A DNA stretch of 64,000 nucleotides from an uncultured Candidatus Rokubacteria bacterium (GTDB taxonomy: Bacteria; Methylomirabilota; Methylomirabilia; Rokubacteriales; DASRDR01). This document shows, one piece after another, positions 1-12,343 of the stretch. How positions within the stretch are numbered: the first letter of the stretch is position 1; the number at the start of each line of letters is the position of its first letter. A model generated the notes under the pieces. It searched no databases and was not told the DNA's origin. It saw nothing but the letters and a program-made list of their open reading frames with translations. Position numbers and translations under genes: made by a program. The stretch spans positions 1-64,000 of the forward strand of contig CAVPSB010000011.1 in assembly GCA_963708025.1 (NCBI GenBank). Direction: 5' to 3'.

Positions 1-1499
1 GACGCTCGTCGAGGCCCTCGAACGCGCGAGGACGCCCGGCGTCGCCGGGACCCCGGGGCCGCGGGGCCGACACGGTCGCCGGTCGCGGCCCTTCGGGCGC
101 GTACGAGGCCCGCTGCCGCGAGGCGAATGCGTTCGACTTCCTGGACCTGCTGGTCGAGCCCCTCGCGCTGTTCGCGCGCGAGCCGGCCGTGCGCGCGGCG
201 CTGCGCGGCGCGCTTCCAGGCCGTGCTGGTTGACGAGGCGCAGGATCTGTGCGCGCTCCAGCACGGGCTCATCGAGGCGCTCGCGGCCCCGGACGGCGCG
301 ATGACGCTCGCCGGCGACGACGACCAGGCCATCTACGGCTGGCGGGGCGCCGACCTGACGCGCCTGCACGCCTTCGAGCGCACGTACCCGGGCGGCACGG
401 TGCTCGCCGTCGGCCGGAACTACCGCTCCACGCCCCAGATCGTGACCACCGCGGCGCGGCTGATCGCGCACAACCGGGCCCGGCGGCCGAAGCCGCTCGC
501 GGCCGTGCGGCCGGCGGGGCCGGTGCCCACGGTCCTCACGTGGCCCGACGACCGGGCGGAAGCCGAGGGGCTGGCCGCCGCGTGCGCCGAGTGGCTCCAG
601 ACCAGTGGTCCCCCGATCGCCGTCCTCGCGCGGGTGACCGCGTGCCTGGGGCCGATCGCGCGGGCCTGCGCGGCCCGTGGGCTCACCGTCCGGGTCCTCA
701 CGGACCGGCCCCTGGCCGAGCGCGCCGCGGTCCGCGATGGCCTCGCGGTCTGTCGCGTGCTCGTCAACCCCGCCGACTGGCCGGCCTGGGATCGGATCCT
801 GCGCGGGCTCCGCTGCGGGATCGGCGCGAAGACCCTCGCCGATGCTCCGCGCTCGCGCCGCCGGCGTGGGGATCGCCGCAGCGCTGACCGACGCCGCGCG
901 GACCCGGCCGCGCCTGGCCGCGCTCCTCCAGCAGCTCGCGGTCTGGCGGGCCGCGCCGCCCCCGGTCAGCCAGCTTCTCGAGACGCTGGCGCCGGAGTTC
1001 CACGACCATGGCCCGGACGGACGGAGCGCGGCGACGCGACGCCCGCGATCGTCGCGCCGAGGACATGGCCGCGCTGGTCGCCCTCGCACGGCGATGGGAG
1101 GCGGACGGCGGCGGGAGCCTGGGCGAGTTCCTCGACACGGTCGTGCTGAGCGAGGACGACACCGTCGCCCCGGCCACGACGCAGGTGCTCGGCCTCACGC
1201 TGCACGCGGCCAAGGGGCTCGAGTTCGACACCGTGGTCATCGTCGGGGTCGAGGAGGGACTCTTGCCGCACTACCGCCACACCGTTCCCGAAGCGCTCGT
1301 CGAGGAGCGGCGACTCTGCTACGTCGGCATGACCCGCGCGCGTCAGCGGCTCGTGTGCTCTGTCGCCCGGATGCGCCGCCTCTGGGGCGATGTCGCGTTC
1401 CGGCCGCCCTCCCGCTTCCTCCGAGAGGCGGGTCTCGACATCCGGCCGGCTGCGAACAGGACCATCACGACACCCACCGTGGAGGTCACCCCGTCATGA
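1..1499 (+). CDS. UvrD/PcrA/Rep-family SF1 helicase (5' end outside window; frameshifted)
   Basis: Motifs across ORFs 127..1149 and 1008..1499: VLVDEAQD, AGDDDQAIYGWRGA, NYRSTPQI, LTLHAAKGLEFD, EERRLCYVGMTRAR. Confidence 0.9.
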
Positions 1500-2860
1500 G
1501 CACGACCGCCGTCCGGATGGACACGGACAGGCTCCCGCGGGTCAGCCCGTCCCGCCTCGAGGCCTGGGACCGGTGCCCGGCCGCCTACCGATTCGAGCAT
1601 GTCCTGCGACTCCCGCAACCGATCGCGGACCAGGGGCCCCGCCTGCTCGGCTCGGTGGCCCACGCGCTGGTCGAGGCCTACGTCCGCGAGGCCCAGGCGA
1701 CCGGCACTCGGCCGCCGCTCGATCGGCTGCCCGCCCTCGCACGGGATCTGGTCACCCAGCACGCCCTGCCGGAGGAAGCGGGGACGGCGCTCGCCCGCGA
1801 GGCCACGGCGCTCGCTGAGCGCGTGGCTCGCGCGCGGGGTCGTCCCGCTGGAGCACGCCGTGGCCGTCGAGCACGCCCTCGCGATCGATGCCGGAGGCCG
1901 GCACGTCGAGTGGGACGCCCCGGACGCCTTCCTCCGCGGCCGGCTCGATCTGGTCGCCGTGGATGGCCGGCAGGCGACGGTCTGCGACTGGAAGAGCGGC
2001 TGGGTCACCGAGGACGACGAGACCCTGCCGTGGGCGTGGGCACCGGGCTGCTACGCGGCGCTGCTGTGGGCGTGGGCGCCGCGGCTCGAGGCGGTCACCG
2101 TCGAGTACCACTACCTGCGCACCGGTCGGGTCGCCCGCACGGCCTTCACCCCGGCGGACGCCGCCGAGACGCTGGCCTGGGCGCGGACGACCGCGGCCCG
2201 CATCGCCCAGGCCCTCGCCACCCCGGACGATCCCGGCGCCTTCCCGCCCCGGCCCTCGACCGCGTGCGGCGACCTGCCCCTGGGTGAACCGGTGTCCGGC
2301 CGGCCAGGCCGCCCTCGAGGCCATGGACGAGGCACCGATCCCCGACGAGGCCGAGGCCCGCCGCCTCGCGGCGCTCCTCCTGACCGGTGAGGCCCGCGTG
2401 GGGCGCCTCCGCGAGCGCCTCCGGCACTACCTCCAGGACCGCGAGCCCCTGGCGCTCGACGGGCATGGAGCTCGGCTTCTTCCCCACGAAGGGCCGGTAC
2501 GACCCGGCGGCCGTCTTCCGCGCGGCCACCGAGGCCGGGGTCGATCCCTGGCCGCTCCTGGCCACCGACGGCCGCACGCTCGCGGCCTTCCTCAAGCGCC
2601 GGCCCGACGCGGAGCGGAGCCTGGCCTCCGCGTGGACCGCTTCGCCGCCGTGGTTCGGCCACCGGAAGACGAAGAATGCCAGGAGGGGTGCCGGCGAGCC
2701 CGACGATCGGCCGTCGCGGGGAGACGAGATAGCAGCGAAGGCGCATGCGACAGGACAACCCGAGTCTCCGGGCCACCACTCTCTGGACACCGCCCGACGG
2801 CCAGCGGTCCGGCGTGCTGATCATGGGCGCGCGTCGGGGCGACGTCTTCGTCGCGACTGA
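1496..2860 (+). CDS. PD-(D/E)XK (RecB/AddB/Cas4-like) nuclease with probable 4-Cys Fe-S motif (frameshifted; 3' end approximate)
   Basis: ATG 1496 overlaps the helicase stop. SPSRLEAWDRCPAAYRF, GSVAH, LRGRLDLV, VCDWKSG and C-terminal C..CPWVNRCP, spread over ORFs 677, 1599, 1888 and 2387. Confidence 0.8.
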
Positions 2861-2999
2861 GGTTCTCATCTCCGCGGATACCCTCGGTGACGAGGCAGCC
2901 ATCCGAGCGTGGCTCGCCCAGCACGACATCCACGTCGCGCCCCCGTGCCGCAGCACTGCCTCCACGCCGAAGGGCTCCACGGAGGGGATCGGCTCATGA
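2745..2999 (+). CDS. Hypothetical protein of the mobile element
   Basis: 84-aa ORF with protein-like composition, co-oriented with neighbours; no recognisable motif. Confidence 0.4.
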   Translation: MRQDNPSLRATTLWTPPDGQRSGVLIMGARRGDVFVATEVLISADTLGDEAAIRAWLAQHDIHVAPPCRSTASTPKGSTEGIGS

Positions 3000-3047
3000 C
3001 GGGGCCGGGCGGTGACCCGAGGACACCGGGACAAGCGGGGACGACTG

Positions 3048-3483
3048 ATGACCACCGAACAGGCTGAGGCCTTCGCTCAGCTGCGCACGCTGGCCGCCGC
3101 GTCCCGCCTTCGGGTTCGGCCGGACGCCGAGGGCTGGCCGGTCATCCCGGGGCGCCTCGGGCAGATCGAGTACCACGACGGCCGGAACCTGGCCGTCTTC
3201 ACCGACCGGCCGCGGCTGCACGCGAAGCTGTGGGCGATCCCCGGCGGTCCGCCGGCACCAGACCGGCGACCAGGAGATGCGCGCGCTGTTCCCGCCCGAG
3301 GCGCTCGAGCAGGTGGCCGGGGTCATCCGGGCCCGGCGGCGGCGGACGCTCTCGCCGGAGAGGGCGCGAAGATTGGGCGTCCAGACGGCGTACAGGGCGA
3401 CTTCCCGGTCCCTGGACCGCGTCGGCGCGTCATCCCGGGCTTCCGAGGTGGGGTCCGGCGCGGCGCCCGAGACTGGGCCCTGA
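3048..3483 (+). CDS. Hypothetical protein (frameshift near 3245)
   Basis: MTTEQAEAFAQLR...KLWAIPG continues in another frame as ...EMRALFPPEALEQVAGVIRARRRR; stop 3483 overlaps the next ATG. Confidence 0.5.
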
Positions 3484-3728
3484 TGGACACCCCGATCCGC
3501 CCCCGACGCCCCCGCCTTGACGCTCCCGCGCCCCCGGGTCAGGATGGCGCCGCGGCGGCGATGCGCGTGGTGATCGTGGAGCAGCCGGATCCCAACGGCG
3601 ACCGTTGGGCGGCGGCGTTCAGCGTGCTGCTCGACGCGCCGGGGCCGGCGCGCGAGGCCGGGCGTTCGGGGCTCGTGGGGCCGTCGGGGGGCGCGGAGTC
3701 GCCCCCCAAGCGCGACGGCGCCCAATGA
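3483..3728 (+). CDS. Small hypothetical protein
   Basis: TGATG coupling at 3481-3485 and ATGA coupling at 3725-3728. Confidence 0.45.
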   Translation: MDTPIRPRRPRLDAPAPPGQDGAAAAMRVVIVEQPDPNGDRWAAAFSVLLDAPGPAREAGRSGLVGPSGGAESPPKRDGAQ

Positions 3729-4336
3729 ACGCGGTCGCGCCGTCCCTGGACAACCTCGCCGCCCACCCGGAGCGGGCGCGCGACCTCGCGCCGGCCGTGG
3801 CCGCGGACCTCCTCGCGCGGGTGGCCGGGCTTCAGCCGGTACTGCTCGCGCGGGCGCTCGCGTCGGCCGGGGGCGCCTCGACGGCGTCCGAGGCCCCCGA
3901 TCCGCGGCTCTTGACGATCCGCGAGGTGGCGGTCCGGCTCGGCGTCGCGCCCGCCTACGCGTACGAGCTGGCGCGGCGGGGCGACCTCCCGGTGGTCCGG
4001 GTGGGCCGGCGATACGTCCGGGTGTCGGCCGCGACACTCGCGGCGTGGATCGAGCGGCAGGGACTTGACAGCGGAAGTCTGCCGATGGTATGGTTCCCGC
4101 ATGGACCCCGACGAGGTTCGGCGACTCCGCGAGCGGCTCGGCCTGACGCAAGCCCAGATCGCCGAGCGGCTCGGCGTCACGACGGTCGCGGTGTGGCGGT
4201 GGGAGAAGGGCGTGAAGCCCGGAAGCCGGCGACGCATACCCGAGCCGGCGGCGCGGCTCCTGCGGCTGCTGGCCGCGCACCCGACCTTGATGGCCGAGGT
4301 GATGGCGCCGGCTCCGGCACCGACAGGACGACGTAG
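3725..4336 (+). CDS. Excisionase-like HTH (HTH_17/MerR-like) DNA-binding protein
   Basis: RLLTIREVAVRLGVAPAYAYELARRGDLPVVRVGRRYVRVS upstream of an integrase. The tail overlaps the XRE gene, so the functional part probably ends near 4070. Confidence 0.75.
   Translation: MNAVAPSLDNLAAHPERARDLAPAVAADLLARVAGLQPVLLARALASAGGASTASEAPDPRLLTIREVAVRLGVAPAYAYELARRGDLPVVRVGRRYVRVSAATLAAWIERQGLDSGSLPMVWFPHGPRRGSATPRAARPDASPDRRAARRHDGRGVAVGEGREARKPATHTRAGGAAPAAAGRAPDLDGRGDGAGSGTDRTT
4065..4094 (+). promoter_or_regulatory. sigma70-type promoter (TTGACA-N18-TATGGT, extended -10) giving a probably leaderless XRE-int transcript
   Basis: TTGACA 4065-4070, TG 4086-4087, TATGGT 4089-4094, ATG 4101; no SD. Confidence 0.6.
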
Positions 4337-4358
4337 GCGGACGCGGGGAGGGCGTTGA
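4101..4358 (+). CDS. XRE/Cro-CI-family HTH regulator
   Basis: VRRLRERLGLTQAQIAERLGVTTVAVWRWEKG. Confidence 0.85.
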   Translation: MDPDEVRRLRERLGLTQAQIAERLGVTTVAVWRWEKGVKPGSRRRIPEPAARLLRLLAAHPTLMAEVMAPAPAPTGRRRRTRGGR

Positions 4359-4360
4359 CG

Positions 4361-5545
4361 ATGGCGTGCATTCGCAAGCGACGGGGGAAGTGGGTCGTTG
4401 ACCACCGGGACGCGGCCGGCATCCGCCGGTGGGTGACGTGCGAGACGCGGAAGGACGCCGAGGCCGTGCTGTCCGATCGGCTGCGGTCCGCGCGGCAGCC
4501 GACCCGCCCACTCGTGGACCCGAGCATTACCGTCGCAGCATACAGCGCACGGTGGCTCGGCGTCGTCGGCGCCACTTCGAAGCGCCGGACGCTCGAAACC
4601 TATCAAGGGGCGCTCCGTCTGCACATCCTCCCCACCCTCGGCGGCTGCAGAGTGGCGCAGCTCCACCGCGGCCAGCTCAAGGTGTTCTTCGCCGAGAAGC
4701 GCGGCACCCTCTCCCGCAACTACGTCAAGCTTATCCTTGGGGTCCTTCGCGCGATGCTCGGGGGCGCCGTCGATGACGGGGTGATCGCGGCGAACCCCGC
4801 AGACAAGCTCGGCCGTCAGCTTCGGCTGGGCCACACACGGGCCGCGCGACAGGAACACATCAAGGCCATGACGCGGGAACAGGTCGCGCACTTCCTGGCG
4901 ACCGCCGAACGCGTGGCCCGGCGTTACTTCCCGCTCTTCCTCGCCATGGCCCGCATGGGTCTTCGAGTCGGCGAGGCACTCGCAGTGCAGTGGGCGGACC
5001 TCGATTTCGCCGGGCGGGAAGCCAGGATCGAGCGGGCTTTCTCCGCCGGCCGGCTCGAAGACACGCCGAAGGGGAACCACGGTCGTACGGTCGAGATGAG
5101 CCAGCAGTTGACGCGCCTGCTCCAGCGGCTCGAAGTAGAGCGGAAGGCCGAGACGCTACGTCGGGGCTGGCGAGACGTGCCGCCGTGGGTGTTCTGCTCG
5201 GAGGCCGGCGAGCCGCTCACCGCGCGGTCCGTGGACCGCCTGTTCAAGCGGGTGCTCAAGGCCGCGGGGCTGCCGGGTCACTTCACCCCGCACGGCCTTC
5301 GGCACTCCTATGCGTCGCTGCTCTTGCAGGCCGGGGTGAGCCCCGTCTACGTCCAGCGCCAGCTCGGCCACACGTCGATTCAGATGACCGTGGACCTCTA
5401 CGGGCGGTGGCTCCCGATGGGAAACAAGGCCGCCGTCGATTCGCTCGACGGGCCGAGTGGTAGCAAAACGGTAGCAGCGGCGGCCGAGCCCGGGGAAACC
5501 CGCGATCTTCCAAGGGTTGCGACGGTGGGTCCACGAAGCCCTTGA
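4361..5545 (+). CDS. int: Tyrosine recombinase / phage-type integrase
   Basis: N-terminal IRKRRGKWVVDHRD arm-binding-like segment; catalytic GLRVGE, TPKG, HGLRH, QLGH, DLY. Confidence 0.95.
   Translation: MACIRKRRGKWVVDHRDAAGIRRWVTCETRKDAEAVLSDRLRSARQPTRPLVDPSITVAAYSARWLGVVGATSKRRTLETYQGALRLHILPTLGGCRVAQLHRGQLKVFFAEKRGTLSRNYVKLILGVLRAMLGGAVDDGVIAANPADKLGRQLRLGHTRAARQEHIKAMTREQVAHFLATAERVARRYFPLFLAMARMGLRVGEALAVQWADLDFAGREARIERAFSAGRLEDTPKGNHGRTVEMSQQLTRLLQRLEVERKAETLRRGWRDVPPWVFCSEAGEPLTARSVDRLFKRVLKAAGLPGHFTPHGLRHSYASLLLQAGVSPVYVQRQLGHTSIQMTVDLYGRWLPMGNKAAVDSLDGPSGSKTVAAAAEPGETRDLPRVATVGPRSP
5459..5476 (+). repeat. Tandem GGTAGCA repeat, putative integrase arm-type site
   Basis: GGTAGCA at 5459-5465 and 5470-5476 (11-bp period), ~55 bp from the inferred junction. 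Confidence 0.5.
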
Positions 5546-6248
5546 TGGCGGCCAGCGGCGTCCGCAGCTCGTGGGAGACGCTGCTCAGGAACTCGGACTT
5601 CAGCTCGTCCAGCTCGCGCAGGCGCGCGTGCGAGTCGGCCAGCTGCCGGTTCGTCGCCTCCAGTTCGGCCGTCCGCGCCCGGACCTTGGCCTCCAGCTCG
5701 GCCGCCGAGCGCTCGAGACGCGTGTACAGGCGGGCGTTCTGGATCGCGATGGCGGCGTGAGCGGCGAAGACGGTGAGTAGATGGACGTCCTTCGGCGAGA
5801 AGCCCCCGGGCTTGTTGCCCATCGACACCATGCCGATGATCCGATTCTCCAGCGTGAGGGGGACGACGGTCACGTTGAAGAGGGCGAACGGGCGAAGGTA
5901 CTCGCGCTGGGCGGGATGGAAGTCATCCGGATGCTTCTTCACCATGGGACCCTGGGTCCGGAAGTTCCAGGCATCCCGGAGGGTATCCACCCGGTAGCGA
6001 AAGGTGCGGATCAGCTCGTCCGGGACGCCGTACCCGGGCGCCTGCCCCACCATCTCCCGCGTGGCCGGGTCGAAGAGGGAGATGACGCACTTCTCGGCCC
6101 CGATCAGCTCGGCGATCCGACGCGTGAGGCGGCCGTAGGTCTCCTGGATGTCGGTCATCGCCGCGAAGGCCTGGGAGATCTCGTGGAGACCCTCCAGCTC
6201 CCTGTACCGGCGGCGGCGCCCGAACAGGCGGGGGAGGGCGGCGTTCAC
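5529..6248 (-). pseudogene. GAF + HisKA histidine kinase, 5' half only (interrupted after the H-box; ORF runs on to 5283)
   Basis: GAF domain, coiled coil, LKSEFLSSVSHELRTPLAAIKGFVD, then non-homologous antisense-integrase sequence; no HATPase_c. Confidence 0.8.
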
Positions 6249-6362
6249 CGCGGCCCACCTTCGGAGGCGTAGATAGCAAGCAGGGCGTCATCGTGGGACG
6301 ACGCCCTCTGATCGGCTGGACGTCCGGCCGCCCGACGGCGGCGGCCCGGCGCGACTTGAAGG

Positions 6363-6629
6363 CTACTTCTTGGTGGCCGGCTTGACTCCCGGATTGTCCT
6401 TGAAGAACTGCTTGTTGAGCTCGGTGAAGTTCTTCCACTGATCCGGGACTTCGTCCTCGGCGAAGATAGCCTTGACGGGGCAGACCGGCTCGCAGGCGCC
6501 GCAGTCGATGCACTCCTCGGGGTGGATGTACAGCATCGTCTCCCCCTCGTAGATGCAGTCAACCGGGCAGACCTCCACGCAAGCCTTGTCCTTCACGCCG
6601 ATGCACGGCTCGGCAATCACGTAAGGCAT
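6363..6629 (-). CDS. fdxA: 7Fe/8Fe ferredoxin (FdxA-type)
   Basis: CIGVKDKACVEVCPVDC and CIDCGACEPVCP; SD GGAGG. Confidence 0.93.
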   Translation of the reverse strand: MPYVIAEPCIGVKDKACVEVCPVDCIYEGETMLYIHPEECIDCGACEPVCPVKAIFAEDEVPDQWKNFTELNKQFFKDNPGVKPATKK

Positions 6630-7278
6630 TCAGTCCTCCCCCGAGTGAGTTTCCAGGGCGGCAGACTCCACTTCCCGGCTTCGGGCGACGCTCGACTTGC
6701 CTGGGGCGGATGGGCCCGAACGGGTAATTGGTACTATGGGTTGGCTCGGGTGTCAAGCGATTCGAGCCCGTCCACCCCACCCGGGTCCCGTCTCGGCGTC
6801 GCCCCTCGATCCTCGGGAACGGTCTGCGCCCGATCGTGCGGAGTCGGGTTGGTGATGAGAGGGTGCCGGTCCTCGCCCGGCGTCCGCTCCCGACCCCGCC
6901 GACCGCCCGACCCCGGCCTCGCCGTCGCTCGCGCCCGCCTGCGTGATGGTCGCGATCGCCCGCGCGCTGCCTCGACCGGGCTGGCTTCCTCTCGCTGGAA
7001 GCAGTCGCCGGAGGGTGCAACGAGAGTGCCACGGGGCCTCGCATCGCAAGGCCGCGCCGAACGCGAGGGGCGCTTGTGAACCTGGGCACAGCTGCACACT
7101 GGAGTGTGCAGTGCTGCACTGTTTCGTGTACAGCAACAGGTGGCGAGTAAGGATCGGCAGCGGCGCGAACTTGCGGCGACGGCCGGGAGGGCCGGTTGTG
7201 AATCCCGTTGGGAGATGGCGAGGTTCGGCGCTACCGTCGCGATCCGCTCGACCGCGGCCGCCATCTCCTGAGACGCCC

Positions 7279-7306
7279 TTGACAGTGCACGGGCGCCCTG
7301 TAGCCT
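7279..7306 (+). promoter_or_regulatory. Putative sigma70 promoter, leaderless start
   Basis: TTGACA 7279-7284, N16, TAGCCT 7301-7306, GTG 7313. Confidence 0.4.
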
Positions 7307-7312
7307 GCTGGG

Positions 7313-7711
7313 GTGCCCTTCGCAGCCGCTCAGTCCCGGCTCTGGATTCTCCTCGCCGATGACGACATGCGAGTGCGCGAGCTCTGGCTTCATGTCTTGA
7401 CGCGCGCCGGCTATCGGGTCGTCGCCGCGAGTGACGGCCGCCAGACCCTCGAGCTGGCGCGCGCTATCGTTCCGGACTTGCTCGTTCTCGATCTGAAGAT
7501 GCCGGGTGTCTCCGGCCACGGCGTCCTGGCCGCCCTGCAGGCCACGCCCATCGTGCCACGGCTGCCCGTGCTGATCGTCTCGGGTTTCCTCGAGGATCCC
7601 GAGGCCGGCGCCGAGCTTGGCCTCACCATCGTGGGCCGCCTGGCGAAGCCCCTGTCGCTCAACGCGCTGCTCGAGGCCGTCCGGCTGGCGCTGGCGCGGC
7701 GGCCGGCGTAG
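7313..7711 (+). CDS. Single-domain response regulator (CheY-like receiver)
   Basis: ILLADDD, LLVLDLKMPG, IVSG, LAKP. Confidence 0.9.
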   Translation: MPFAAAQSRLWILLADDDMRVRELWLHVLTRAGYRVVAASDGRQTLELARAIVPDLLVLDLKMPGVSGHGVLAALQATPIVPRLPVLIVSGFLEDPEAGAELGLTIVGRLAKPLSLNALLEAVRLALARRPA

Positions 7712-7811
7712 TGCCCCCGTTCGGTCGATCGGAGCTGGTGCCATTCTGATCGACTGAACCGAATCTCGCCGAATCTGCCCTTCAGGGGCTTGTGTAACGC
7801 GCACTTAGCCC

Positions 7812-7827
7812 TGGCGCGTCTCTTGCT
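7812..7827 (+). promoter_or_regulatory. sigma54 (-24/-12) promoter
   Basis: TGGCGCG-TCTC-TTGCT vs consensus TGGCACG-N4-TTGCW; GG-N10-GC spacing exact. Confidence 0.55.
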
Positions 7828-7912
7828 CATTGAGGCAAGCCGGCGGCTGACAGTGAGACACCACCTATGCGTCCCGGGGCGCTTCCCGAAGTGCCCATCG
7901 TGCTTTCACGGA

Positions 7913-7993
7913 ATGATCGGCGTGTGGTTGCTGGTGACCATCCTCCTGGTCGGGGTGGGGGTGCTGGTGCCGATCATCCTGGCCGCCCTATGA
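7913..7993 (+). CDS. 26-aa single-TM micropeptide
   Basis: MIGVWLLVTILLVGVGVLVPIILAAL, fully hydrophobic, downstream of the sigma54 motif. Confidence 0.4.
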   Translation: MIGVWLLVTILLVGVGVLVPIILAAL

Positions 7994-8083
7994 GCCCGGA
8001 CCTTGCCCGCTGGACCAACTCTCGATCGCGCTGCGAGCCAGCCCGACCGATCTCGCCCGGCTGATTCAGCGCGTGGTGAATCA

Positions 8084-8561
8084 TCAGCGGCCCGGGCTGT
8101 GGGTAGACCACGCGACGGTGACCGCTTGGCAGACGCGCGCTCCGGAGGCCTGGCGCGAGGCGTCCGCCTGGCTGGCGCACCGCGGGATCCCGGTGTTCGT
8201 CATTTCGAGCCGGCCGCGGCTCGACGCGGAATGAGCGGCGCCCTCACCCGCGATCCGCGTCCCGAAGTTCCGCCGGTCCGAACGCCCGTGCGAGCCGGGC
8301 GGCCAGGTCCCTCCGACGAGTGAAACAGATACTAGGCGGTCGTGGCGATTGATGAGTGCCGCATCAGCGCTTGAAAGGAAACGTCGGGGACCTGGCCGGG
8401 CTTCAAGGTAGGACCGCACAGCGATTCCCCTGGACGGTCTCGATCCTCTGTCCGTGATGGCGACCTCGAAGACGCCCTCGCTTCGCGGTGCCACCGCCAC
8501 ATCCGGCGAGGGGCCCTGTGGTCGCTACGACCACGAGTCCCGCGCTTAGCCAGTGCCGCAT
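8084..8561 (-). pseudogene. Possible degraded lipoprotein gene
   Basis: MRHWLSAGLVVVATTGPLAGC lipobox after GGAGG, then a frameshift; the remainder is unrecognised. Confidence 0.25.
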
Positions 8562-8749
8562 CACCCCACCTCCCCTCTCCCGACGTCCTCTCGTTGGCGA
8601 GCGTTGGCCAATTCCCGGCGGAGCGGTCCCGGACCTGGCGCGGTGGTTACCGCCCTCTGATGGCGTTCCTGGACGGATGACCTGCGGTCCATTCCTGGGC
8701 GAGGGAGCTGAACCAGCGGCGCAGCCAAATGCACAGCCCAATGCGCTAT

Positions 8750-8778
8750 TTGACTACCTGGGTCCTCGCTGATATCCT
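8750..8778 (+). promoter_or_regulatory. sigma70 promoter of the kaiC-like operon
   Basis: TTGACT 8750-8755, N17, TATCCT 8773-8778 with TG extension. Confidence 0.5.
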
Positions 8779-8828
8779 CGGCTCACCGGTTCCCACTGCC
8801 TGCTGGCAGGACCCGAGAGAATGGTTTC

Positions 8829-9200
8829 GTGAGCCGTAGCGACCAGGGCGCGACGTCCGCGGCAGAGTTGTTCGATCTCCTGTGGGAGTCCCTCGCCGAT
8901 GTCCTGGGAACCGCCGCCACCGCCACCCTGGTGCGTCGCGCGATCAAGCAGGCCACGTCCCAGACCTCGTGGTCCGAGTCGGTCGTCGTGGTCCGCAACG
9001 GCCTGGACTACGAATACCGTCTCCCCGAGACATGGAAGCAGCCCGGCAACGAGGAGGCCTTGGGCGCGCTCCGGGTCGTGGCGGCCGAGCTGCGCGTGCT
9101 CCTCGTCGAGCTGACCGGACCGGTGGTGGTCAGGCGGCTCGGGCGTCTGGCTCCCTTCCGCGAGCGGGGGATCGACTTCAGCGACGAGGCGCCGAAATGA
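8829..9200 (+). CDS. Hypothetical helical protein coupled to the KaiC-like gene
   Basis: 123 aa (LFDLLWESLADVLGTAATATLVRRA...LLVELTGPVVVRRL); ATGA overlap with kaiC at 9197-9200. Confidence 0.75.
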   Translation: MSRSDQGATSAAELFDLLWESLADVLGTAATATLVRRAIKQATSQTSWSESVVVVRNGLDYEYRLPETWKQPGNEEALGALRVVAAELRVLLVELTGPVVVRRLGRLAPFRERGIDFSDEAPK

Positions 9201-10704
9201 CTGAGCGCCGCTTCAACCCTCGAGCGGCTGAGCACCGGATCCGCCGCGCTGGATGCGATTCTGGGCGGTGGGATTCCCGCCCGGTCGGTGACGGTCGTCG
9301 CCGGCGAGCCGGGCTCGGGAAAGACCGTCTTCACGCTCCAGGCGCTCTTCCACCACGCTCGACAGGGGAAGAAGTGCCTCTACTTCACCACGCTCTCCGA
9401 GCCGGCGCTGAAGGTCATCCGCTACATGCAGCTCTTCTCGTTCTTCGACGCCCGCCTGATCGAGGACCGCATCGTCTTCGCCGATCTCGGCTCGACCCTC
9501 CGTAGCGGCGGCGTCGAGCAGGCGCTGGCGCAGATGATCCAGCGCGTCGAGAGCGAGGAACCCGACCTCGTGGCCGTCGACAGCTTCAAGGCCATCCACG
9601 ACCTCCTGCCCAGCGACGGCCACGGCCGGATGTTCGTCTACGACCTCGCCGTCGGCATGGCGGCGTGGGGGGCCACGACGCTGCTGGTCGGCGAGTACAC
9701 GCCCGAGGACATCGGCGTCGCGCCCGGAGTTCGCCATCGCCGACGGCATCGTGCGTCTCACCACTGAGCGCCAGGAGCTGACGACGGCCCGGCAGCTCGA
9801 GGTTCTGAAGTTGCGCGGCGCGAACTACGTGACCGGGCGCCACTTCTTCGAGATGGACGCCGACGGGCTCACGTTCTACCCGCGCGTGCGGGGACCGGAG
9901 ATGACCGGCGAGCCGCCGGTCGACCTCGCGGATCGGGTCGCCACCGGTGTCGCCGGACTCGACGCGCTCCTGCTCGGTGGCCTGCCGCGAGCGAGCGCGA
10001 CGATGGTCGAGGGCGGCACCGGGACGGGCAAGACGCTCGTGGGCCTGCACTTCCTCCTCGAGGGCGCGCGCCGGGGGGAGCCGGGGATCCTCTTCACGCT
10101 GGAGGAGACGCCCGCGCAGATCCGGGCGATCGCGAACAACTTCGGCTGGGAACTCGCGCCGCTGGAGGCTCAGGGCCGGCTCCTCATCAGCTATACCTCG
10201 CCGGTCGAGCTCTTCACCGATCGCTTCCTCGACGCGGTGCGGCGGCAGATCGAGAGGGTCGGCGCGCGCCACGCGGTGCTCGACAGCCTCACCAGCATGG
10301 CGCTCGGCGTGCCCTCGCAGCGCCGGTTCCGCGAGCTGGTCTACGCCCTGACCAAGCACTTCCGGGCCGCCGGGGTCACGCCGCTGATGACCATGGAGGT
10401 CGCGGAGCTGCTCGGCACCGCGCAGCTCACCGGCCACGGCGTCTCTTCCACCGCCGACAACCTGATCTTGCTGCGCTACGTCGAGGTGGACGGGCGTCTG
10501 GAGCGCGCCGTGTCCGTACTCAAGGCGCGCGGGACCGGCCACGTCACGGAGCTCCGCCGCTTCCTGATCGACGGCCGCGGGGCGCACGTCGGAGAGCGGT
10601 TCGAGGATCTGCGCGGGGTGCTGACAGGGGTCCCGCACCCCGAGCGCGCAGCGGGACGTCTCGTCGCGCGGCGCTCGTCCAGGACGAAGAGTCGCAGGCG
10701 ATGA
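9197..10704 (+). CDS. kaiC: KaiC-like double-domain RecA-family ATPase (frameshifts near 9220 and 9720)
   Basis: CI: STGSAALDAILGGG, GEPGSGKT, AVDS, LEVLKLRG. CII: ATGVAGLDALLLGG, GGTGTGKT, TLEE, VLDS, GVSSTADNLILLRYVE, VLKARG. Confidence 0.9.
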
Positions 10705-12343
10705 CGCCGCATCACCCGGACCCCGCGAACCTCGTCGGGTCGGTCGCCCGCACGCTCTACGATATCGGGCAGGGCTTCGACTCGCCTCTCGACAGCCGAG
10801 CCCCGGCTCCGGCGCGCGCTCGGACTGCTCCGCCGCATCGTGCCCTACGACCGCTGCGCGCTTCTCGAGGCGCCGGCGGCCGGCCCGGCGCGCCTCGTGG
10901 TCGAGCCCGACGCCCCGGAGGCGCGGGAATCTCTGAGCCGGGTGCTGACGCGCTTCTTGACCGTCGTCACCGACGAGTCGCAGCGGGCTGGCCGACTGGC
11001 TGCCACCGGATGTCGCCCACCTCGTGCCCTGCGCCTCGCACCTGGCGGTCCCCCTCGTCGGGCTCGACCGGGTGCTGGGCGTGCTCTTCGTGAGCCACCA
11101 AGAGGCCGACGCCTACACGGACGACCATCTGCGACTCCTGTCGGTCGTCGCCAGCCAGATCGCCGCGTATCTCACCGCCTGCCGGCTTCGCGAGCAGGAA
11201 GCGCAGATCGCGAGCGAGCACGAGGCAGCCCGAGCAGCGGCCGAGGCGGAGAACCGCGCCAAGGACGAGTTCCTGGCGATGCTGGCCCACGAGCTGCGCA
11301 ACCCGCTCATGGCTATCCGGATGGCCATGCAGACGATCCGGGGCCAGGCCGAGCGCGATCCCATCGTCCAGCTGGCGAGGGATGTCGTGGAGCGGCAGGT
11401 CAAGCACCTGGCGCGTCTGCTCGACGACCTGCTGGACGTCTCCCGCCTGACGCGCGGCAAGATCGAGCTGCACAAGGAGACGGTCACGCTCCAGATGGTC
11501 GTCGCCGCGGCGCTCGAGACCACGCGAGGCATCATCGACGCTCGGAGGCATGTCGAGTCGATGTCGCTGCCGGCGGAGCCGCTCTGGTTCGAGGCCGATC
11601 CCACGCGGATCACCCAGGTCGTGGGCAACCTGCTCGACAATGCGACGAAGTACACACCGCGGGGCGGTGAAATCTCGGTGACGGGATATGGCGAGCGCGC
11701 CGAGGTCGTGCTGCGCGTGCGCGATACCGGCATCGGTATCTCGCCCGAGATGGTGCCACGGGTCTTCGATCTGTTCGTCCAGGCCGATCGGCCCCTAGCC
11801 GGCTTCGAGAGAGGCCTCGGCGTGGGTCTCACGCTGGCCCGCACCCTGATCGAGCTCCACGGTGGAACGATTACCGTCGAGAGCGAGGGGCCGGGCCGGG
11901 GGAGCGAGTTCGTCGTGCGCCTGCCCGTCGGCGTGCCGGTTGGGTCCCGGGGACGCGACGATCGTCGACGAGTCGCGGTCCAGGCCCGGCACATCCTCCT
12001 CGTCGAGGACGACGACAACGTCCGAGAGGCTCTGCACAGGATCCTGGCGCTCGACGGCCACCGGGTCGAGGTGGCTCGCGACGGCCCCGGGGGCGTGGAG
12101 CTCGCGCTGGCGACCGCTCCGGAGGTCGCGTTCATCGACATCGGCCTTCCCGGCATCGATGGCTACGAGGTCGGCCGGCGCATCCGGACCGCGCTCGGGA
12201 GCCGGGTACTCCTCGTCGCACTGGCGGCCTACGGCCAGGAGCGGCGATCGAGCGAGGCAGGGTTCGACGCCCATCTCGTGAAGCCCGTCAGCTATGAGGA
12301 TCTCACCCGGGTCCTTGGCCGGGCCGCCGGCGGGGACGGCTAA
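10701..12343 (+). CDS. GAF-HisKA-HATPase-REC hybrid histidine kinase (frameshifted at the 5' end)
   Basis: KDEFLAMLAHELRNPL, NLLDNATKY, DTGIG, GLGVGL, receiver EDDD...FIDIGLP...LVKP; ATGA overlap with kaiC. Confidence 0.9.

Follow-up and report, generated by a model that had tools for sequence, protein, structure and literature searches.

The Interrupted Kinase Gene

The stretch of DNA described here, which we call the window, is the first 64 kb of a 77,748-bp contig (C11) from an uncultured Candidatus Rokubacteria bacterium; the whole assembly consists of 49 contigs, totals 8.17 Mb and has a G+C content of 71%. Near the start of the window, a sensor histidine kinase gene on the minus strand meets a tyrosine integrase gene on the plus strand, and this report is concerned with that kinase gene and with the integrative element that very probably splits it. 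Domains and genes were called with Pfam, PADLOC and PHROG profiles.

The 5' half of the kinase gene (5529..6248, minus strand) encodes a GAF domain, a coiled coil, the H-box with its histidine (His226) and the first 14 residues past this histidine, as indicated by Pfam, by the orthologues and by two intact alleles of 446 amino acids (aa), P0003 and P0183. It is part of a 321-aa open reading frame (ORF), 5283..6248 on the minus strand, in which Pfam recognizes GAF at residues 32-170 and HisKA at residues 217-239, the latter over profile positions 2-24 of 66 only; HATPase_c was not found by Pfam in this ORF. The last 81 codons of the truncated kinase ORF (residues 241-321; 5283..5528, minus strand) form a nonsense tail that is the antisense of the integrase 3' end, and the same tail is present in two other proteins, P0001 and P0002. 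The ferredoxin gene upstream of the kinase (6363..6629, minus strand; Pfam Fer4) belongs to the host flank, and the relatives share this gene order.

The kinase homology in the window ends after ...IKGFVD, and this places the break between bases 5528 and 5529. A first-pass annotation of this DNA had already read the minus-strand kinase as GAF, coiled coil and H-box, followed by antisense integrase sequence from about 5529 with no HATPase_c domain after the H-box, and both statements hold. The stop codon of the integrase (5543-5545) sits inside the kinase remnant, giving an overlap of 17 bases. The attachment site is located inside an ORF that is intact in the relatives: the break comes after residue 240, the gene encodes 443-493 aa in these relatives, and near-identical alleles encode 446 aa.

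Clear orthologues of kinase residues 1-240 are present in 16 of the 41 related genomes that were searched (64-84% identity, E 2.6e-88 or better), with open frames of 443-693 aa. The homologues at 83% identity carry Rokubacteria names from their sources. Eleven of these loci were fetched and translated. An ORF with the H-box was obtained from nine of them and the other two had no ORF carrying the motif. In eight of the nine, the protein reads ...GF/Y-V/A-D NLLDGV... and on into a complete HATPase_c half. Consequently, the concern that the orthologues might naturally stop after the H-box can be set aside, as the relatives continue into HATPase_c. The ninth ORF (L010; G018:C19:629134-632844) loses its frame about 100 codons into the C-terminal half and has a 693-aa open frame, the result of either a frameshift or an assembly error. 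One unpublished genome, G038, enters only the tallies for the relatives, and no claim depends on it.

The Second Half of the Kinase

The first-pass annotation expected that the 3' half of the kinase, i.e., the rest of HisKA plus HATPase_c, should exist. It is present in the same genome, at the end of another contig (C17:103005-103616, minus strand). The C-terminal halves of four orthologues match this region (103616..103005) with 65-72% identity, and the next paralogue has 46%. The match begins with the codon right after FVD (NLLDG...), which is at the final base of the contig. Pfam finds HisKA profile positions 31-66 and HATPase_c (E 6e-30) in the C17 region, and the gene that follows encodes a regulator with receiver, sigma-54-activator and Fis domains. 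The ferredoxin, kinase and regulator genes are contiguous in two relatives (G010 and G011). Because both halves are present and zero kinase codons are lost, something was inserted between two adjacent codons.

The half on C17 has 204 open codons in which the N, G1, F and G2 boxes are visible by eye. Its pairwise ratio of nonsynonymous to synonymous substitutions (dN/dS) is 0.28-0.39 versus 0.28-0.48 among the intact orthologues, a comparison that has no power for a recent split with dS values of 0.55-0.99 between the genomes. Judging from its codons, this half shows no decay, with the proviso that dN/dS has little power for a recent event. Thus, the H-box and HATPase_c that characterize a HisKA-type kinase are both present but on two separate pieces, and what this genome encodes is, on the face of its genes, not a working kinase. 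When metagenome loci were searched with the 3' half, none of the matches listed exceeded 72% identity; this is no evidence of absence because near-identical JGI alleles turned up in a protein search.

The Junction in Other Data Sets

The kinase-integrase junction is present in data that are independent of this assembly. Assembled contigs from four soil runs (X1-X4) were placed on the window, and a contig was taken to bridge the junction if it had at least 31 letters beyond it. One contig from X2 covers 5013-5578 with six differences and has 516 letters to the left and 50 to the right of the junction. In addition, two public 321-aa proteins have the same junction and the same nonsense tail: P0001 with four differences, and P0002 with 38 differences in 321 residues, of which 12 affect the kinase part and 26 the tail. 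Together, the X2 contig, P0001 and P0002 indicate that the junction did not arise through an error in this assembly, which answers the first-pass concern about a misassembly across 5400-5700.

The contigs from X1 display a different pattern. One of them ends at 5558 and another starts at 5529, an overlap of 30 letters; the first of these (5066-5558) has just 30 letters to the right of the junction, which is under the bridging threshold. The contigs are from Logan, which we take to have been built with 31-letter words, and on that premise the two ends would represent a point at which the assembly graph branches, right at the border of the core described below. Such a branch is consistent with a single sample that contained both occupied and empty sites, or two strains. 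Summed contig depth is lower over the integrase than over the kinase in all four runs; however, contig depth is not copy number and these values were not used.

The Core Repeat and the Split and Intact Alleles

The window opens at the start of C11, and so, the element runs off the contig start. Information on its far junction comes from a protein search with the C17 half, which identified a 95%-identity cluster whose full members, P0121, P0178, P0180 and P0182, are 213 aa long; they are encoded on six contigs of 2.4-5.4 kb. All four open with LNKGFVDNLLDG, that is, LNKGFVD and then NLLDG, and the intact genes have AIKGFVDNLLDG. This would mean that the KGFVD codons are repeated at the far junction, with foreign sequence before them. 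The putative attachment core therefore consists of the last 15-16 bases of the kinase 5' half (5529..5544; codons K-G-F-V-D), starting where the kinase homology starts at 5529 and presumably repeated at the other end of the element. Since the repeat is known from five codons at the protein level, its length in bases is inferred: 15 bases, or 16 if the preceding C is shared. The first-pass annotation had anticipated a duplicated core near GGCTTCGTGGAC, and the four 213-aa ORFs, although from other metagenomes, imply one.

These data were also examined with the features of gene-interrupting elements in mind. Both halves of the kinase gene are kept, and a short repeat that keeps the reading frame is seen, at the protein level, in all four full 3'-half ORFs. 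An aberrant junction, in which there is no repeat between C11 and C17 and the identity block of the dnaJ type (see below) is absent, was considered and discarded in view of the KGFVD repeat of the 213-aa ORFs.

Whole genes exist in near-identical strains, which bears out the suggestion to compare this locus with relatives that carry an intact kinase. The intact 446-aa alleles are P0003, with 12 differences in 240 residues and 13 in 204 from this genome, and P0183. P0181, a fragment with the intact junction, has only 2 differences in 204 positions from the split allele P0121, and the split alleles differ among themselves at up to 12.

The Integrase, Its Family and Its Target Sites

The integrase gene (4361..5545, plus strand) encodes 394 aa from the ATG at 4361, the start that public gene calls also assign. 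The protein has a Pfam Phage_integrase domain (PF00589, E 8.3e-31, residues 171-349), an N-terminal SAM-like domain (Phage_int_SAM_3, PF14659) and a match to the PHROG 1 integrase (E 2e-66). It is also 394 aa long in the two other close copies, which differ at 4 and 36 positions (up to 9%). All three copies have the motifs GLRVGE, H-x-LRH (HGLRH), LGHTS and DLYGRW; provisionally, by eye and against the family consensus, these are taken to hold the box I Arg, the box II H-x-x-R, the His/Trp and the Tyr nucleophile. All three ORFs end ...GPRSP, which is the integrated configuration, and an excised form would read on differently. The lineage that targets the kinase is narrow, namely one 90% cluster of three sequences, and the next relative is 66% identical.

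Two GGTAGCA words, 11 bases apart, form a putative arm-type doublet (5456..5481, plus strand) that is conserved directly after the integrase core in the family; it is present in most of the homologue loci listed and in five of the nine relatives' loci listed. Between the doublet and the core is a 47-base flank on the element side (5482..5528, plus strand; the P' side of the attachment site), which is, by eye, about 70-80% similar to flanks on C38 and C26 of the same genome that adjoin dnaJ 3'-end sequence. The identity block with the target is located about 50 bases past the arm doublet, as it does in the relatives.

There are 23 homologue loci in species-representative genomes, of which 21 were examined (the two weakest were dropped). 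In 11 of the 21, the arm doublet is closely followed by a tRNA gene on the other strand, for Lys, Thr, His, Met or Arg; about six more have partial tRNA 3' pieces by eye and four have none. In one relative (G012) and on C38, the flank adjoins the 3' end of dnaJ, as confirmed by Pfam. Two blocks of the kinase site itself are similar to the 3' end of dnaJ: GGCTTCGTGGAC matches GGCTTCCTGGAC at 11 of 12 positions and AACCTCCTCGACGG matches AAGCTCCTCGGCGG at 12 of 14, and such matches occur in the genome at frequencies of 1.8e-5 and 3.7e-5 per position, respectively. As the family is otherwise found at tRNA genes or the dnaJ 3' end, this integrase lineage appears to have shifted to a site inside a gene, and the dnaJ-like blocks at the kinase site may mark the path of this shift.

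Other traces of the family are present in the genome. C38:7766-7791 is an exact 26-base copy of the arm doublet at 5456-5481, and together with a related flank (to 7850; L135 1767-1851) it abuts the dnaJ stop codon; an insertion sequence with an rve_3 transposase occupies the place where an integrase would be expected. From its layout, this locus looks like the relic of a dnaJ-targeting sister element. A relic on C26 (about 9120-9300) is attP-like and combines the flank, 15 codons that resemble the end of dnaJ, and a doublet of GGTAGCA. Another attP-like relic, on C4 (18150-18480), has an integrase stub, the 3' half of a tRNA-Lys and the doublet, and on C15 (381380-381940) a 135-aa integrase C-terminus adjoins a tRNA-Lys(ttt). 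No tRNA gene was found in positions 1-12000 of the window.

Other Genes of the Element

In the 5.5 kb of the element that can be seen, there are several genes in addition to the integrase, all on the plus strand. At the contig start, which truncates it, is a UvrD/GajB-like helicase (1..1499), presumably cargo, that is spread over at least three frames; Pfam finds UvrD-helicase and UvrD_C on two ORFs in different frames. It is followed by a PD-(D/E)XK nuclease, also probable cargo (1599..2390; Pfam PDDEXK_1, E 5.6e-9; PHROG exonuclease, E 1.7e-4), and by two ORFs (2387-2860 and 3012-3728, together 2387..3728) with no Pfam, PADLOC or PHROG match. Next are an HTH_17 protein of the excisionase/AlpA-like type (3605..4336; Pfam HTH_17 at residues 102-152, E 1.4e-11; PHROG 'excisionase and transcriptional regulator', E 1.8e-9), whose true start is probably later than 3605, and an Xre-type helix-turn-helix regulator (4065..4358; Pfam HTH_31, E 1.4e-10; PHROG transcriptional repressor, E 1.6e-11). 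Its profile match and its position close upstream of the integrase make the HTH_17 protein a candidate recombination directionality factor.

The window helicase has a paralogue on C18 (C18:473512-475443; 643 aa, 89% identity) that is uninterrupted and matches PADLOC GajB with E 5e-82. However, no GajA partner and no PADLOC match were found among the neighbouring proteins tested around the C18 paralogue, so there is no sign of a Gabija system there. The paralogous C18 element has the helicase, RadC, SSB, HTH_17 and an IS110 transposase, and neither it nor the visible 5.5 kb has any virion, packaging or lysis genes. The helicase/nuclease module (window 1-2674) recurs with 80-91% identity at C18:472340-474991, C18:37080-38857 and C14:486996-488786. 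A search for the N-terminal part of the helicase that is missing at the contig start yielded only the C18 paralogues, and a tblastx scan gave mostly noise among the matches listed.

Contigs from all four soil runs have single-base deletions relative to the window at 207, 1813-1814, 2268-2271 and 2464-2465, within the helicase and nuclease region. The deletion at 207 coincides with a frameshift relative to the C18 paralogue, and so, some of the frameshifts may be assembly errors or the result of cross-mapping between paralogues.

On the other side of the kinase, the region 8829-12343 includes what appears by eye to be a KaiC/RecA-type double ATPase (9288-10704) and a GAF-type hybrid histidine kinase with a receiver (11024-12343).

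A Gene That Excision Would Restore

We consider it very probable that a site-specific integrative element has inserted into the coding sequence of a GAF-HisKA-HATPase_c kinase and that its precise excision would restore the intact 446-aa gene. The proposed events are as follows. The element would have inserted into the part of the gene that encodes the first helix of the dimerization/phosphotransfer domain of a presumably cytoplasmic kinase, 14 codons past the phospho-accepting histidine. Integration would leave the core (5529-5544, about 15-16 bp) at both junctions and divide the gene into a 5' ORF, with GAF, H-box and 81-aa tail, and a 213-aa 3' ORF, with the second half of HisKA and HATPase_c, that is followed by the sigma-54 response regulator gene. 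The far junction of this genome presumably resembles that of the 213-aa ORFs. Autophosphorylation should fail while the element is integrated because the histidine would reside in one polypeptide and the ATPase in another, and helix 1 is interrupted 14 residues past the histidine; the element would also separate the sigma-54 regulator gene from the promoter region of the ferredoxin and kinase genes. Recombination by the integrase between the two core copies would rebuild the 446-aa gene, presumably with the HTH_17 protein as the excision factor. It is also presumed that the element still moves. Possibly the GAF/H-box fragment serves as a phospho-accepting stub in the meantime, as the first-pass annotation suggested.

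Several observations weigh against this explanation. The core repeat rests on proteins from other metagenomes, i.e., on five codons and not on DNA. In this assembly there is one exact copy of the core, the far junction is absent, C17 stops exactly at the core edge, and no contig end in the assembly overlaps the C17 end. Likewise, no GGTAGCA doublet is located within 600 bases of any contig end, and when the attP-like relic on C26 was used to look for the far end by similarity, the sole match was the start of an unrelated gene in C48. Viral contigs and species-representative genomes contain no match to the exact junction word, and an attP or circle form was not found among the three close integrase ORFs. 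Several dead relics of the same element family are in this genome. Finally, the helicase has indels relative to its C18 paralogue near bases 60, 95, 207, 840 and 1020-1060 and at least three frame shifts, which suggests that it has decayed, unless these are assembly errors.

Some of these same observations would suit an element that is no longer mobile. It might be a locked-in relic of a single entry into a secondary site by an integrase that normally targets tRNA genes or dnaJ; the kinase would then be a pseudogene, and the intact lineages would never have had the element. The habits of the family are in accord with this proposal, with tRNA genes after the arm doublet in about half of the loci examined, dnaJ 3' ends in G012 and C38, and a kinase site that resembles the dnaJ 3' end, and so are the frameshifted helicase and the many family relics in the genome. 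On the other hand, the core repeat is intact in all four 3'-half ORFs, the integrase is intact in all three copies and the 3' half is without decay. The 2/204 distance between an intact and a split allele also fits an old single event poorly. A maximum-likelihood tree of the C-terminal halves, with 200 bootstrap trees, requires the split state to have been gained or lost twice in 99% of them; an approximately unbiased test, which counts on the side of one origin and against a moving element, does not reject a single insertion with vertical descent (p = 0.30). Taken together, the tree and the test would indicate that repeated movement at the kinase site is likely, but not proven. We regard a locked-in relic as rather unlikely.

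The first-pass annotation went further in the opposite direction and proposed a switch controlled by excision. The structure that it predicted is borne out; the controlled excision is not, as no attP or circle form was found among the three close integrase ORFs, all of which are in the integrated configuration. As such a switch would operate, a signal or a developmental state would trigger excision and turn on the kinase and its sigma-54 pathway, and re-integration would turn them off, as at comK or sigK. The necessary parts all appear to be there (core repeat, intact integrase, candidate excision factor and adjacent regulator), the intact and split alleles are nearly identical, and the X1 contig ends at the core edge fit integrated and empty sites in one soil sample. 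However, strain mixtures account equally well for the X1 branch. No excision or attP was seen in the three integrase ORFs or in the assembled contigs of the four runs, and nothing links the element to a condition. Furthermore, the same junction in lineages with integrases 9% apart accords with an element that has long been in residence, a differentiation programme is not known for this organism and the helicase cargo looks decayed. A regulated switch is thus a tentative suggestion to which we would give little weight. The same holds for the related idea that the integrase lineage has been kept in the phosphotransfer helix because reversible excision provides the host with a heritable means, at the population level, of turning a sigma-54 two-component pathway on and off, which is doubtful at present; a bolder version, more speculative still, would have the GAF/H-box stub and the free ATPase half perform activities of their own while the element is integrated.

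A chromosomal rearrangement is very improbable as an explanation. In this case, a reciprocal exchange between an integrase-side attachment site and the kinase would have joined C17 to C7 and the integrase to the kinase 5' half. The 12 bases with which C7 starts (C7:1-12) do hold a 9-mer, GGTTGCGAC, that is also found at window positions 5515-5523, five bases to the left of the core, and that has 33 copies in 16.3 million positions. The first bases of C7 also share GAGGTT with the last bases of C17, and C7 carries housekeeping genes (HD, HEAT, menaquinone synthesis), one of which is near the kinase locus in G010 and G011. However, the 213-aa ORFs place the core, preceded by the LN codons, before the 3' half, and the C7 end does not encode them; the 9-mer is present at one of 98 contig ends and was found after the fact. 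That the contig is chimeric, with the kinase 5' half and the integrase neighbours in no cell, is hardly credible and close to refuted: the assembly has 49 contigs with an estimated contamination of 8% and C17 ends exactly at the break, but an independent X2 contig bridges the junction, and the fusion tail is present in two more protein records, one from a clearly different strain.

Comparison with Other Gene-Splitting Elements

The split kinase gene with a precisely excisable element, which we prefer to the alternatives above, is not without precedent. Most known gene-splitting elements whose excision restores the gene come from cultivated bacteria, in which they interrupt sporulation, competence, mismatch-repair and heterocyst genes, and the window element appears to belong to this known class, as do skin in sigK, the comK prophage and the nifD element. 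The skin-type elements have their own recombinase and directionality factor and are located inside a regulatory gene, and their precise excision rebuilds the ORF.

In the Listeria prophage phi10403S, attB is within comK, and reversible excision without lysis restores the function of the gene; this is referred to as active lysogeny or a 'phage regulatory switch'. The window element is similar in having its attB inside a gene. However, the comK prophage is a full inducible prophage, whereas the 5.5 kb that are visible here contain no virion genes and the reversibility is putative. The nifD, fdxN and hupL elements of heterocystous cyanobacteria have the recombinases XisA, XisF and XisC, respectively; XisA and XisC are tyrosine recombinases that excise the DNA between short direct repeats. 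The nifD-type elements thus share a tyrosine recombinase, a location inside a gene and short direct repeats with the window element. They differ in that their excision is developmentally programmed and irreversible in heterocysts, and the genes are for nitrogen fixation, not signalling.

Intervening elements in sporulation genes, the subject of three articles (PMC5025042, PMC6957869, PMC10747680), include skin in sigK of Bacillus subtilis and Clostridioides difficile and yin in yabG of C. botulinum. As in the window, what appears to be the remnant of a mobile element with a recombinase splits a regulatory gene. Unlike the window element, these elements mostly have serine recombinases, are inserted in sigma-factor genes or spore genes and are excised in a cell that differentiates terminally. 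The window element has a tyrosine integrase, its target is a two-component kinase and its host belongs to an uncultivated soil lineage that is not known to differentiate.

The closest comparison is with the integrases at tRNA and dnaJ ends in Rokubacteria, Nitrospirota and Acidobacteriota. These are 51-66% identical to the window integrase and share with it the C-terminal WLPMGNKAAVD, the GGTAGCA doublet and an identity block about 50 bases further on. However, their targets are the 3' ends of genes. Such elements rebuild the 3' end of the gene, and so, their integration is harmless; the lineage in the window targets the middle of a gene and destroys it.

In the literature searched by full text, a scope that excludes subscription journals, no attB within a histidine kinase gene is described. 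The same split-gene architecture is now seen in a two-component system, where it affects the sensor kinase gene of a high-G+C soil lineage that has not been cultivated. The split and whole natural alleles are almost identical. With its short attachment sites, the 394-aa integrase and a small protein as the candidate excision factor, the locus provides a testable system. This system bears on whether signalling pathways of soil populations are toggled by mobile elements and on how the target changes in a family of integrases that use tRNA and dnaJ ends. If a regulated switch were true, it would have no predecessor, either in bacterial signal transduction or in any uncultivated soil phylum.

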